Part shown: positions 480-3,097 of the stretch, piece after piece
How positions within the stretch are numbered: position 1 is the first letter of the stretch
How the letters are laid out: every line of letters starts with the position of its first letter
Sequence record: MK416018.1
DNA length: 34,141 nt
Reading direction: 5' to 3' (one strand)
Source: Klebsiella phage ST147-VIM1phi7.1
Notes under the pieces: generated by a model
The model's input: only the letters and a program-made list of their open reading frames with translations
Told to the model about the DNA's origin: nothing
The model's database searches: none
Translations under genes and position numbers: made by a program

Positions 480-690
480 TATTGTGCTCATGGTGCTTCT
501 CATCGAAAAAGTGTAATTAAATTTTTCATTATGTAATTGTATATTAAATATTCTATTATGAGAAAATGTTATAAGTCATCACTCCTAAGCGAAGCGGATA
601 TCTTGTTATGATGCGTTCATTGGTTAGTTAGTGAGATAAGTCGCCACCAATTGGGTATTTATTACCCGTGGAAAGCAGATGCTTTCTAAC
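480..690 (+). promoter_or_regulatory. AT-rich intergenic region, putative promoter region for the downstream retron-like operon
   Basis: About 30% GC, lying between the Tum stop and a structured GC-richer region. Called from sequence composition only. Confidence 0.3.
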
Positions 691-699
691 ATTTACCCC

Positions 700-900
700 G
701 CGCAACGCCTCTGAGCACCGAAGCGACGCAGCTCGCAAGAGTCATCGCAGGTCCAGATGGTATGGCGTATGGGTATTCGAACCCTTTGGGCGACCAAGGG
801 TTCGTGGAGCAGGGGGCTAGTGCTGTTCAATCTCATCCTTATGAGGGCGAACCATGGTGCTTGAGCAAACATCCGTTTGCACACCGTGGGCATAAGGAAA
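700..900 (+). ncRNA. Candidate retron ncRNA (msr/msd) or structured leader; boundaries uncertain
   Basis: Two strong hairpins lie here. One is at 777-803 (9 bp + 2 bp stem, GCGA tetraloop). The other is at 837-897 (7-bp closing stem ccttatg/cataagg plus an inner ~8-bp stem). Both sit upstream of an operon encoding a retron-type RT. The six-frame ORFs here (693-893 minus, 762-904 plus) have non-protein-like composition. Confidence 0.3.
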
Positions 901-904
901 AAGT

Positions 905-1061
905 CATGAAGAATGATAAAGTAACCAACGAACAGCAGGCGCAGAGCAAGTCAAACCGGAAAAAGTGGGCTGCTTATGCGTGGGAAGCGATCAAGTGGGG
1001 TATTCGACTGTTTGATTTAATCACACGATTAGTAAACTATTTTGAAGGGGGAGATGAGTAA
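905..1061 (+). CDS. Small Trp-rich amphipathic protein (51 aa), unknown function
   Basis: Strong SD (AAGGA at 894-898, 6 nt before the ATG at 905). Product MKNDKVTNEQQAQSKSNRKKWAAYAWEAIKWGIRLFDLITRLVNYFEGGDE. Lies in-operon upstream of the HTH-RT pair. Confidence 0.4.
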
Positions 1062-1085
1062 TGCGTCCTCCCTAGTTTCAATAGC

Positions 1086-1406
1086 ATGGAGTTGCCTATG
1101 TTACATAAAGCCCTTCGTTTAATAAGGCAATACCATAAAGAATCAATAGTTGAATTATCAACATCTTTGGGTATTCCAAAAGAAAAAATAGTAGAACTTG
1201 AAAGCGGAGTTTGGTCGCCGTCGATTGAAGTTTTACAGCGTTATGCATCTCATTTTGACATACCAGTATCTTCCTTAGTGTTTTTTTCAGAATCATTAGG
1301 TACTCAAGGGCGTTTGTCTAAGAGTTTACGCTTAAATTTAGCAGGTAAAGTTCTGGATATCGTAGAGTGGGTAAGTAATAAAAATGAAAAAACGGAAAAA
1401 GCTTAA
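1086..1406 (+). CDS. XRE-family helix-turn-helix protein (retron accessory candidate)
   Basis: Classical HTH_XRE segment (IVELSTSLGIPKEKIVELESGVWSPSIEVLQRYASHFDI). The 3' end overlaps the RT start by 23 nt, suggesting translational coupling. Alternative start at ATG 1101. Confidence 0.7.
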   Translation: MELPMLHKALRLIRQYHKESIVELSTSLGIPKEKIVELESGVWSPSIEVLQRYASHFDIPVSSLVFFSESLGTQGRLSKSLRLNLAGKVLDIVEWVSNKNEKTEKA

Positions 1407-2334
1407 GATCTCCACTAAAAATAAATCTTATGACGTAAAGGATTCGCCATTTTATAAGCTCAAAACCAAAAAAAAACTTGCCGGACTTCTTTGCGTTAGT
1501 GTGAATGATTTATCTATTTTGAGAAAAGACGAAGGTAATTACTCTGTTTTTGAACAGCTGTCTAAAAAAGGCAAGCCACGAAAAATACAAAAGCCTTTAG
1601 AGAAATTAGATGTAGTGCATACGCGAATTGCGAGTTTATTATCGCGCATTGCGTTACCAGAATATCTGCATTCAGGTAGAAAAAAGTGTTCTAATGTAAC
1701 GAATGCTAAAGCTCATCTTAACCATGAAAAGATGATGACAACTGATATTAAGGCCTTTTTCCCTTCAACAACAAGGGTAATGATATTTTCATTTTTCTTT
1801 TCAGTGATGAAAACGTCATCTGACGTTGCTGATATTTTGTCGCACATATGCACCTGTCATGACCGGTTGCCAACAGGAAGTCGGATTAGTATGCCTTTGG
1901 CCTACTTTGCAAACTCTAGAATGTTTAGTGAAATGTATGAGCTTTGCCAAAAATTAACAGTTAACATGACTGTTTATGTTGATGATCTGACTTTTTCTGG
2001 CGCTAACGTAAATCGATTATTCTGTGCTGTGATTCGTAAGGTTATCTGCAAGCATGGGCATACTATGCATCCTGATAAAACAAGATTATATGCTAAAGAC
2101 CAACCCAAGTTGGTAACTGGAGTTATTGTATTAGGTGACTGTTTGAAAGTTAGAAATGAGCAACATCGCCTAATGGCTAGAGATATTGAGTATTGGAAAA
2201 TAATTAAAGATGTGGAAAGTGCTAAAGAAACATCGATTGCAAAAACACTCTTTGGTCGTTTGCATTCAATGGGAGTTATTGAACAACGGTATAAATCGAA
2301 AGTCCTCACTTTAAAGTTTAATACCGCAAATTAA
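1384..2334 (+). CDS. Retron-type reverse transcriptase (316 aa)
   Basis: RT motifs are present. These are N-terminal LAGLLCVSVNDLSIL, KKGKPRKIQKP (cf. retron KKsGGxRxIxxP), NAKAHLNHEKMMTTDIKAFFPS (motif 1-2), LPTGSRISMPLAYFANS (motif 4-like) and YVDDLTFSG (YxDD). It also has HPDKTRL and the retron-specific VTG box (KLVTGVIVLG). Its size matches Ec86-class RTs. Confidence 0.85.
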   Translation: MKKRKKLKISTKNKSYDVKDSPFYKLKTKKKLAGLLCVSVNDLSILRKDEGNYSVFEQLSKKGKPRKIQKPLEKLDVVHTRIASLLSRIALPEYLHSGRKKCSNVTNAKAHLNHEKMMTTDIKAFFPSTTRVMIFSFFFSVMKTSSDVADILSHICTCHDRLPTGSRISMPLAYFANSRMFSEMYELCQKLTVNMTVYVDDLTFSGANVNRLFCAVIRKVICKHGHTMHPDKTRLYAKDQPKLVTGVIVLGDCLKVRNEQHRLMARDIEYWKIIKDVESAKETSIAKTLFGRLHSMGVIEQRYKSKVLTLKFNTAN

Positions 2335-2472: not shown

Positions 2473-2904
2473 TTAGCTTGTTACCAGATTAACACCGAGT
2501 GTCAGCAAATTCGTCACCGCACCTGCAATGACTCCTGGGGTTCCATCCTTCACCGCACTGATAATCTTATCGCCCATCGTTTCATTACCGCCAAGCGCCT
2601 CAGGCTTTTTGTTGAGCACGGCGAGAGCTTTCTCGGTCAGACGCACATCCATAAAATACGTTTGATGGTCGGTTTCATACTGGATGTATCCATTTTCACC
2701 AAGAAAAGTGAATGTACCTTCAACCACACTACGCAATTGATTTATTGCTTTCATTTCCGGTGAGTTAAGTTGGTTAAAGTAGTCATCGGGTAGTGCTGCG
2801 TTAAATTTTTCGTAGGTGATGACTTGCGGAACGGGAAAGTTATCCCATAGCACCGCAAAGATTTCCGCCGTCTGTTGGTTAAATAAATCGAGGTTTTTAG
2901 ACAT
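2473..2904 (-). CDS. Hypothetical protein (143 aa) with Gly-rich hydrophobic C-terminus
   Basis: Protein-like composition on the minus strand. Start MSKNLDLFNQQ... at 2904, though the ORF is open up to 2979. C-terminus ...GTPGVIAGAVTNLLTLGVNLVTS. No homolog recognised. Confidence 0.55.
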   Translation of the reverse strand: MSKNLDLFNQQTAEIFAVLWDNFPVPQVITYEKFNAALPDDYFNQLNSPEMKAINQLRSVVEGTFTFLGENGYIQYETDHQTYFMDVRLTEKALAVLNKKPEALGGNETMGDKIISAVKDGTPGVIAGAVTNLLTLGVNLVTS

Positions 2905-3097
2905 GCAAAATTCCATTTCTAGTGAGGATAAGTGGGTTAAGCGCTGGTCGAAGCACATTACCTGTCTGGCGCAGAACAATGACCTTAGTTCACGAGAGGT
3001 CGACAGCTATACCGCTAAGCTGGTCGAACAGGCAAGCAGCGAAGAGCTAGGCAAGGTCATTAAAGACCTACTGAATCACATCAGAATGCAAAAATAA
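2903..3097 (+). CDS. Small hypothetical protein (64 aa)
   Basis: ATG at 2903 is back-to-back with the minus-strand start (acATG). Hydrophilic product MQNSISSEDKWVKRW... Followed by the 3114 ORF and a plus-strand terminator. Weak SD. Confidence 0.3.
   Translation: MQNSISSEDKWVKRWSKHITCLAQNNDLSSREVDSYTAKLVEQASSEELGKVIKDLLNHIRMQK

Follow-up and report, generated by a model that had tools for sequence, protein, structure and literature searches.

A predicted Vpa2-type hybrid RNA in a Type VI retron operon carried by a P2-like Klebsiella phage

Main finding

We describe here a retron operon and its structured RNA in a DNA stretch of 34,141 nucleotides (nt) from Klebsiella phage ST147-VIM1phi7.1 (MK416018.1); this whole stretch is called the window hereafter, and position 1 is its first letter. 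The operon is a Type VI retron, carried as cargo within the variable region of a Klebsiella phage that is P2-like. The segment 618-1100 can be assigned with good confidence as the hybrid RNA (hyRNA) of a retron of the Vpa2 type, carried for phage defence, in which a toxin would be derepressed in dependence on multicopy single-stranded DNA (msDNA). The first-pass annotation, made from the letters of the window, had proposed that two strong hairpins in the operon leader belong either to a retron scaffold or to a riboregulatory leader. Both readings hold at once, because the operon is of Type VI and the leader is homologous to the hyRNA of Retron-Vpa2 by a covariance model.

In the classification of Mestre et al. 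(2020), a Type VI retron has a clade-3 retron reverse transcriptase (RT) and an adjacent gene for a Cro/C1-type helix-turn-helix (HTH) protein, which lies upstream of the RT gene or overlaps it, and in addition a gene for a small accessory protein (SP) 5' of the HTH gene, the order being SP-HTH-RT. The genes SP, HTH and RT are found in this order at the locus, and the end of the HTH gene (1406) overlaps the start of the RT gene (1384).

Retron-Vpa2 is a Type VI retron of Vibrio parahaemolyticus, and the arrangement of the ribosome-binding site (RBS) of an SP toxin on a hyRNA was first described for it in a 2025 preprint (Zhang et al., 10.1101/2025.10.22.683967). Its hyRNA of about 470 nt has three arms: the first is msr-msd, the second consists of two stem-loops with the RBS and AUG of SP, and the third is what remains of the SP coding sequence. 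The arms and the 3' end are tied together through inverted repeats, and a conserved 7-nt direct repeat is present both in the msd loop and in the riboregulator loop. The same preprint reports that the hyRNA is enriched, that RT and HTH bind to it and that SP is toxic, and that msDNA, undetectable at rest, accumulates on phage triggers or on loss of HTH. The long stem-loop gave a 63-nt msDNA signal, and full-length msDNA has an extra 23-nt 5' stem-loop with the repeat; msDNA with this 5' stem-loop is needed for SP translation and, when supplied in trans, is sufficient to derepress it (10.1101/2025.10.22.683967). Hybridisation of msDNA with the riboregulator repeat is put forward in that preprint, too, as a hypothesis only.

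The kinship of the phage RNA with Vpa2 was examined with a covariance model (R1), which was built from 770-951 of the window and 11 relatives with the nested structure imposed. R1 matches over its full length in every related locus; on distant loci of Vibrio, Aeromonas, Providencia and Xenorhabdus it gives 66-101 bits (E 1e-16 to 1e-26), and on loci whose RT is only 45% identical it gives about 50 bits. Two loci designated L027 and L028 are matched over model positions 1-182 with 79-81 bits (E ~2e-20). L028, from V. parahaemolyticus, encodes a 55-amino-acid (aa) SP with K15, I39, F43 and F45 and an HTH protein with R7, which are the residues mutated in the Retron-Vpa2 study (10.1101/2025.10.22.683967), and L028 is therefore Vpa2 or a near-identical allele. 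Identity between the window and L028 is 56% for RT (P0087), 46% for HTH, including R7, and 26% for SP; the two SPs match in a pairwise comparison with E = 2e-4 and have QQ and a C-terminal (E/D)GGD in common.

Conserved structure of the RNA

Both hairpins stand in the minimum free energy (MFE) folds of 660-930 (z = -3.6) and 618-1100 (z = -3.5); the first-pass annotation had proposed folding of 690-910 as a check. The whole RNA, about 480 nt long (~618-1100), takes the same nested architecture in the single-sequence MFE fold and in the RNAalifold consensus of 15 sequences.

Hairpin 2 is the element that covers the Shine-Dalgarno (SD) sequence of the SP gene. It has a closing stem (U)CCUUAUG/CAUAAGG(A), formed by 836/837-843 with 891-897/898, an inner stem of 8 bp (852-859 with 882-889) and an apical stem of 6 bp, GCAAAC/GUUUGC (865-870 with 875-880), as had been described from the letters; its free energy is -24.1 kcal/mol (z = -3.0), and 1 of 200 shuffled sequences was as stable. 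The 3' arm overlaps the AAGGA SD (894-898) of the small open reading frame (ORF), as proposed, and the start of this ORF had to be moved from 905 to the ATG at 906. When the 618-1100 RNA is taken as an ensemble of folds, pairing reaches 68-85% at the SD bases and about 100% at the A and U of the AUG, which lie in a separate start-codon hairpin; this start-codon hairpin is 88% paired across the family, and two of its pairs have changed on both sides.

Hairpin 1 was also present as described, at a position one base from the 777-803 first given. Its free energy is -16.0 kcal/mol (z = -4.5), and none of 200 shuffles was as stable. By analogy with Vpa2, it is very probably part of the stretch that RT uses as template, and the predicted source of the 5'-terminal stem-loop of the msDNA; the homologous hairpin of the Vpa2-like locus L028 has the 7-nt repeat within its loop.

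The stems were compared among homologous loci, as had been suggested, and compensatory changes were found in both hairpins. In an alignment of 22 sequences, which was fitted to R1 and whose covariation counts are inflated by that fitting, standard pairs occupy 97.9% of cells, compared with 33-47% when the 3' partners were slid by 1-3 columns, and 30 of 46 pairs have changed on both sides, compared with 8-14 after sliding; none of 500 shuffles reached any of the observed covariation measures. The pairs changed on both sides number 7 of 11 in hairpin 1 and, in hairpin 2, 7 of 8 in the closing stem, 7 of 8 in the inner stem and 5 of 6 in the apical stem. An unfitted MAFFT alignment of 15 close homologues, analysed with RNAalifold, has compensatory pairs as well. 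In the raw sequences such changes are plain to see: the closing stem is CCUUAUG/CAUAAGG in the window, whose counterpart is CUGUAAU/AUUACGG in Vibrio parahaemolyticus, while L029 has CCUAUA/UAUAGG and L034 has UGAUUG/CAAUUG. That the 3' arm of hairpin 2 occludes the SD is a trait kept up by compensatory change, as is seen in seven of the eight closing-stem pairs.

Three long-range helices connect the arms. The strand 805-816 is directly 3' of the predicted template end, resembles the a2 repeat of retrons and forms with 1068-1080 a duplex that none of the 22 loci has lost and that co-varies, as in UGGAGC/GUUUCA versus UCGAGAC/GUUUCGA and GGGAG/CUCCC versus GGGGG/CCCCC. Helix P2 encloses hairpin 2 and the start-codon hairpin, and its 3' strand (930-937) is at the same time codons 9-11 of SP; all cells of its eight pairs are paired (100%) in the 22 sequences, two pairs have changed on both sides, and its co-varying forms are UGCUG-UUC/GAA-CAGCA, -AUC/GAU- and -GUU/AAC-. 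Helix P3 is in the RNAalifold consensus, has a GC to AU change in the locus L004 and occurs in the family as GGCGCA/UGCGUC, GGCACA/UGUGCC, AGUAAAC/GUUUACU, AACGGU/ACCGUU and AGCUCUUA/UAAGAGCU.

The first 15 codons of SP are nearly invariant at the nucleotide level, and they and the post-stop segment are so well kept because the nested long-range RNA structure runs through both. As a side observation, RNA structure sets part of the protein sequence of SP: the 3' strand of helix P2 encodes the invariant QQ (CAGCA[GA]), and the 15 nucleotide-invariant codons (906-950) belong to the riboregulator arm; the C-terminal (E/D)GGD (1043-1061) and the post-stop segment are conserved across the family.

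The 5' portion of the RNA has a nearly invariant segment followed by two small msr-like hairpins. In the RNAalifold consensus, 618-629 pairs weakly with the SD/AUG region of the HTH gene (1089-1100), and all of these pairs are invariant, with no covariation. The arms of the first small hairpin, SLa, are wholly different in distant loci yet complementary (GAGCU/AGCUC, GAACAU/AUGUUC, GGACU/AGUCC); the top pair of the second, SLb, varies among CG, UG and UA, and this hairpin is kept, with changes, in distant loci. The long stem-loop 694-775 that follows (MFE -32.4 kcal/mol, z = -2.6) has conserved basal pairs and a variable tip (712-757), in which the E. coli group has a 19-nt deletion, and it is predicted from its position to correspond to the Retron-Vpa2 stem-loop behind the 63-nt msDNA signal. 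Neither a conserved branching G nor a canonical a1 repeat was assignable across the loci, nor is there a conserved G after 1080; the 5' candidates for the canonical repeat pairing are short and invariant. No retron or riboswitch family of Rfam was hit by 400-2600 in a cmscan with E up to 10; the matches were limited to chance-level hits to unrelated families.

Direct repeat

The word GGGCGA occurs at 788-793, where it makes up the top pairs and the GCGA loop of hairpin 1, and again at 845-850, in the 5' internal loop of hairpin 2. In 11 of 12 lineages, the two sites have a word of 5 nt or more in common, which stands above shuffles individually (p < 0.05) in 8 of the 12. The two copies have changed jointly, giving GGACGAA in Vpa2, GGCGAG in L037, UGGCGAC in L209, CCGAGAGGG in L220, GAGGA in L216 and CUGGU in L218. 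The conserved repeat is this loop word, GGGCGA, and not the arm word CGAACC, which belongs to the 5' arm of hairpin 1 and is common with hairpin 2 in some lineages only.

The conserved 5' word GUCGCC at 640-645 has the same sequence as the predicted msDNA loop and shows complementarity to the two GGGCGA repeats. We tried and rejected a third, 5' "anti-motif" that would track the repeats (GUCGCC in the window, UCGUC in Vpa2, CCUCGU in L216, ACCAGG in L218, UCUCGGG in L220), which by eye suggested a three-way covariation but performed no better than chance: shuffles of the 5' segment equalled its score in 4-88% of cases, and cross-lineage scores matched own-lineage scores. A pseudoknot of GUCGCC (640-645) mimicked by msDNA was likewise not separable from chance.

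Proposed working and alternative explanations

By comparison with Vpa2, the likely function of the locus is msDNA-dependent derepression of toxin translation. A single transcript would contain an msr-msd arm (the two small hairpins, the 694-775 stem and hairpin 1), a riboregulator arm and an SP-coding arm, joined to each other by the long-range helices. At rest, this RNA would be bound by RT and HTH, and the toxic SP would stay untranslated with its SD and AUG paired. On phage infection, RT would copy about 694-804 into msDNA, as expected from Retron-Vpa2, and the 5' stem-loop of this msDNA, a copy of hairpin 1, would carry TCGCCC, the complement of GGGCGA. TCGCCC could hybridise with the GGGCGA in the internal loop of hairpin 2, and the contact might extend to the adjacent CCA and the CCUU anti-SD arm; hairpin 2 would thereby be opened, the SD freed and the toxin translated, with abortive infection as the outcome.

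Several points weigh against this proposal. Blocking of the repeat alone (845-850 or 845-854) did not expose the SD in silico. The lineage L207 has only CGA common to both repeat sites, and the repeat of the window is 6 nt long and partly within the G-C top of a GNRA-capped stem, as against the open 7-nt loop of Vpa2. Across the lineages, the energies of hybrids between hairpin-1 complementary DNA (cDNA) and hairpin 2 are only partly specific, the own partner ranking first in 5 of 12 rows, and the fitting of the 22-sequence alignment is to be counted here as well. The RT of L028 reads YVDD, while the Vpa2 paper gives a YADD to YAAA mutant, and by this difference L028 may be a near-identical allele rather than Vpa2 itself. 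Finally, another Type VI retron, Sen3, makes single-stranded DNA (ssDNA) and SP constitutively, with control at the post-translational level, and its HTH-SP pair is a toxin-antitoxin module independent of RT and of the non-coding RNA (ncRNA) (Garcia-Rodriguez et al., 10.64898/2026.04.27.721009).

The Sen3 case leads to another explanation, in which SP of the phage locus would be made constitutively, hairpin 2 would tune only its level, HTH would neutralise SP post-translationally and msDNA would not be the switch. The SD is 15-32% unpaired in the ensemble, leaving room for some translation, and the failure of a blocked repeat to open the SD would fit this explanation too. We nevertheless consider such control rather unlikely, because the locus is much closer to Vpa2 than to Sen3: SP has 51 aa here, compared with 55 in Vpa2 and 79 in Sen3, the RT shows its 56% identity to the Vpa2-like enzyme, and a common covariance model detects the RNA. 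The sequestration of both SD and AUG, kept by compensatory change, and the presence of co-varying direct repeats also speak against it.

How msDNA might open hairpin 2 can be modelled more closely. In silico, exposure of the SD needs engagement of the CCUU anti-SD arm (837-841) in addition to the repeat. The hairpin-1 cDNA contains AAGGG, and its best hybrid with hairpin 2 uses AAGGG together with the loop complement, at -21.8 kcal/mol with RNA parameters as a proxy. The 5' hairpin of the msDNA might thus act as a bipartite anti-anti-SD, with AAGGG on the CCUU arm and TCGCCC on GGGCGA, that frees the SD directly. Its discontinuous hybrid of about 20 nt was the sole in-silico perturbation exposing the SD; as a specific model, we regard it as quite unlikely.

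A switch made of RNA only would need no DNA at all. The first-pass annotation had pointed out that the 5' arm of hairpin 1 recurs in hairpin 2 and could allow mutually exclusive pairing; if the 3' arm of hairpin 1 (CCAAGGGUUCG) paired with CGAACCAUGG (848-857), exposure of the SD might be toggled. CGAACC does recur, at 778-783 and 848-853, and the word is common to both sites in Vpa2 as well, and for Vpa2 and most of the close relatives the alternative duplex scores between -8.7 and -11.4 kcal/mol. The pairing with CGAACCAUGG is, however, not family-wide: the duplex comes to only -3.6 to -5 kcal/mol in L004, a close relative, and in L033, L035 and L037, where the arm of hairpin 1 has drifted and the word in hairpin 2 is unchanged. 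The alternative pairing is absent from the MFE and centroid folds, it must break the 11-bp GNRA-capped hairpin 1 (-16 kcal/mol), and removal of hairpin 1 in silico left the pairing of the SD unchanged. These results make an RNA-only switch highly improbable.

The leader might also be coding, with ATG 762, which shares the frame of the small ORF, as the start of an N-terminally extended protein and with the hairpins being incidental. An open frame does run from 762 to 1061 in the window, and some gene callers extend the ORF, as in an 80-86-aa call and in gp41 of Peduovirus P22H1, annotated as 130 aa. The first-pass annotation had named a conserved in-frame ORF over the leader as evidence that would count against the hairpins; the 762-905 frame is not conserved. 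The E. coli group is in another frame owing to an indel of 1 nt in the hairpin-2 apical loop, stops and starts upstream of ATG 906 differ between loci, the substitutions in the stems are compensatory and without a codon pattern, and RefSeq annotates a 51-aa ORF. From the sequences compared, the leader is not translated, and the chance of a coding leader is as good as negligible. Public ORF calls of 80-130 aa that run through the leader into SP are found in L003 (1550-1942, gp41 of Peduovirus P22H1), P0008, P0012 and P0017; since the leader frame is not conserved, these longer calls are over-extensions of the 51-aa gene.

After these comparisons, the Vpa2-type hyRNA with msDNA-dependent derepression remains the reading that we prefer.

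Operon, phage setting and distribution

The coordinates of the features are collected in Table 1.

Table 1. Features of the retron operon and its predicted RNA in the window
Feature	Position	Strand	Basis or remarks
Putative extended -10 promoter, TGtTATGAT	604..612	+	Inferred; predicted transcript start ~618-620
Conserved 5' RNA segment, GAGAUA...GUCGCC(640-645)...CAAUUG	618..651	+	Almost unchanged among 15 close homologues
Small msr-like hairpin SLa (UGGGUA/UACCCG)	652..668	+	RNAalifold consensus and single-sequence MFE fold
Small msr-like hairpin SLb (UGGAAAGC/GCUUUCUA)	669..688	+	RNAalifold consensus
Long stem-loop, conserved base and hypervariable tip	694..775	+	Predicted main msd stem (RT template)
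Hairpin 1, CGAACCCUU(U)GG-GCGA-CCAAGGGUUCG	778..804	+	9+2 bp, one bulged U, GNRA tetraloop
Long-range helix, 5' strand (UGGAGCAGGGGG)	805..816	+	Partner 1068-1080; RNAalifold and MFE folds
Helix P2, 5' strand (UGCUGUUC)	821..828	+	Pairs with 930-937; closes riboregulator arm
Hairpin 2, SD-sequestering riboregulator hairpin	836..898	+	Three stacked stems
Start-codon hairpin, GUCAU/AUGAU	903..917	+	A and U of AUG 906-908 in stem; RNAalifold and MFE folds
SP gene, 51 aa, predicted toxin	906..1061	+	ORF conserved in Enterobacterales
Helix P3, 5' strand GGCGCA	938..943	+	Pairs with 1062-1067 (UGCGUC); encloses remaining SP coding sequence
Post-stop segment: P3 3' strand 1062-1067 and 1068-1080 (CCUCCCUAGUUUCA)	1062..1080	+	Near-invariant though non-coding
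HTH gene (Cro/C1-type)	1098..1406	+	PADLOC HTH_VI 4.5e-31; SD GGAG at 1088-1091
Retron RT, Type VI, YVDD motif	1384..2334	+	PADLOC RT_VI 5.1e-104

The SP of 51 aa, which RefSeq annotates at this length, is shorter than the 75-79 aa of the Type VI clusters cl2075, cl2760 and cl3272, and it gave no match in Pfam or PADLOC. The equivalent of ATG 1098 is the HTH start in the RefSeq homologues. Upstream of the RNA, nucleotide homology among the loci begins at the putative promoter, where CTTGnTATGAT is kept in the Enterobacterales set; a generic promoter scan did not call the 604-612 element, whose -35 is weak. In the distant Type VI loci L204, L207, L209, L215 and L218, an inverted repeat TTCGC-N(3-6)-GCGAA, for example AGTTCGCTAATAGCGAACTTTGTTGAC and GTTCGCTATTTGCGAAC, is present about 40-80 nt 5' of the RNA start and overlaps a TTGAC -35-like box; the counterpart in the window (~586-600) has only AAGCGAAGCGGA. 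Judging from its sequence and position, this repeat may be an operator for the Cro/C1-type HTH protein.

The sequence of the window, with 480-2400 used as query, is 100% identical to that of Klebsiella phage Kp4882-2. A DinI-like ORF is upstream of the retron, and portal and terminase genes are downstream; in homologous loci, a replication endonuclease gene is upstream of the DinI-like gene or immediately upstream of the retron. The DinI-like ORF (37-477) encodes 146 aa, with the DinI domain confined to residues 87-145, behind an N-terminal part of 85 residues, and its homologue in E. coli QEC11-421 is annotated at equal length (146 aa). A perfect inverted repeat of about 18 bp, AUAACCCGGCCAGCACUGAAA/UUUCAGUGCUGGCCGGGUU, lies at 2404-2455, past the end of the RT gene (2334, + strand) and before the 3' end of a convergent ORF; its probable role is that of a bidirectional terminator closing the retron module, and it gave spurious low-score matches to microRNA families of Rfam. 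An ORF of 168 aa at 2473-2979 (- strand), between the retron and the portal gene, had no convincing Pfam or PADLOC match; E. coli relatives have other hypothetical ORFs at this place, and the ORF may be further cargo of the variable region. The reverse transcriptase of P2-EC30, found in the same phage region, was considered and set aside, being of the Abi-P2/AbiK type and unrelated to the retron of the window.

Homologues with 80-92% nucleotide identity were found in about 100 of 5,426 complete E. coli genomes, including O157:H7, in Peduovirus P22H1 and in many IMG/VR contigs, and more distant relatives were found in Acerihabitans, Yersinia, Serratia, Dickeya, Vibrio, Aliivibrio, Aeromonas, Providencia and Xenorhabdus. 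A search of genome contigs with the RT gave only 2 loci. A pattern scan of metagenomes with GGGRGCNNGTGCTGNTYAATC gave 120 stretches, of which 80 (L062-L141) were put to the covariance model together with 6 new viral-contig loci; the model matched 8 of these (6 metagenome, 2 viral), all close relatives of the lineage of the window, and most matches of the pattern scan were due to chance.

Significance

Type VI retrons invert the usual retron logic, because in the one studied case, Vpa2, the reverse-transcribed DNA switches the toxin on, and the translational riboregulator that is opened shares its RNA with the template. This design of RNA is found as mobile defence cargo in P2-like phages of Klebsiella, E. 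coli, Yersinia, Serratia and Dickeya. Our independent comparative analysis backs the helices of the published hyRNA model by compensatory change, including those that run through the toxin coding sequence. The precise coordinates and the natural variants, such as the GNRA-capped template hairpin and the altered repeat words, should be useful for studying how an SD hairpin is opened by DNA.

Comparison with known systems

The canonical msr-msd RNA (Retron-Eco1/Ec86; msr of Rfam) resembles the present RNA in adjoining a retron RT gene, in having small 5' hairpins followed by a long template stem with a variable tip, and in having an inverted repeat that abuts the 3' end of the template. It differs in that the template-end repeat 805-816 of the phage RNA pairs about 260 nt downstream, past an embedded gene, and not with the 5' end of the RNA, and in its Rfam family, which the phage RNA does not match. 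The msDNA of Vpa2, unlike that of canonical retrons, is an activator rather than an antitoxin.

In SD-sequestering riboregulators, such as mRNAs activated by small RNAs (sRNAs) and engineered toehold switches, a trans-acting nucleic acid opens a hairpin. The phage locus is similar in that a local hairpin hides the SD and AUG and a single-stranded loop beside the stem is the proposed landing site. Here the activator is proposed to be a DNA that is reverse-transcribed from the very transcript it acts on, its landing site measures no more than 6-9 nt, and opening is not predicted from thermodynamic modelling alone.

The Sen3/cl2075 ncRNA shares with the phage locus the SP-HTH-RT operon, a structured leader before SP and a sequestered SP RBS, as well as an inverted repeat placed around the SP coding sequence, the repeat's 3' arm being just past the stop, and selection for RNA structure within that coding sequence (10.64898/2026.04.27.721009). 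The 79-aa Sen3 SP belongs to another cluster and RT subclade, its RBS is in a basal stem formed with a 5' inverted repeat, whereas the phage RBS is in a local hairpin, and Sen3 has the constitutive production and post-translational control mentioned above.

The closest known system is Retron-Vpa2. The order hyRNA/SP, HTH, RT is the same in both operons, and the RNAs are of similar length (~480 nt here, ~470 nt in Vpa2), with three arms (msr-msd, two stem-loops with SD and AUG, and SP-coding), inverted repeats joining the arms and the 3' end, and a short direct repeat in the loops of the last template hairpin and of the riboregulator; R1, built in the present study, detects the Vpa2-like locus over its full length. 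By this sequence comparison, hairpin 1 corresponds to the last template hairpin of Vpa2 and hairpin 2 to its SD-sequestering riboregulator stem-loop. The vehicle differs, being a P2-like phage of Klebsiella and other Enterobacterales here and a Vibrio chromosome for Vpa2. The repeat is GGGCGA (6 nt) versus GGACGAA (7 nt), and the loop of hairpin 1 is a closed GNRA tetraloop, part of the repeat being in the stem, versus an open 7-nt loop. The msd stem is longer here, with a predicted msDNA of about 110 nt versus 86 nt. Vpa2 has been studied by experiment, whereas the present locus has been analysed by sequence comparison and predicted folding. The locus is a phage-borne case of the type of system described in 2025-2026 preprints, and not a new kind of system.

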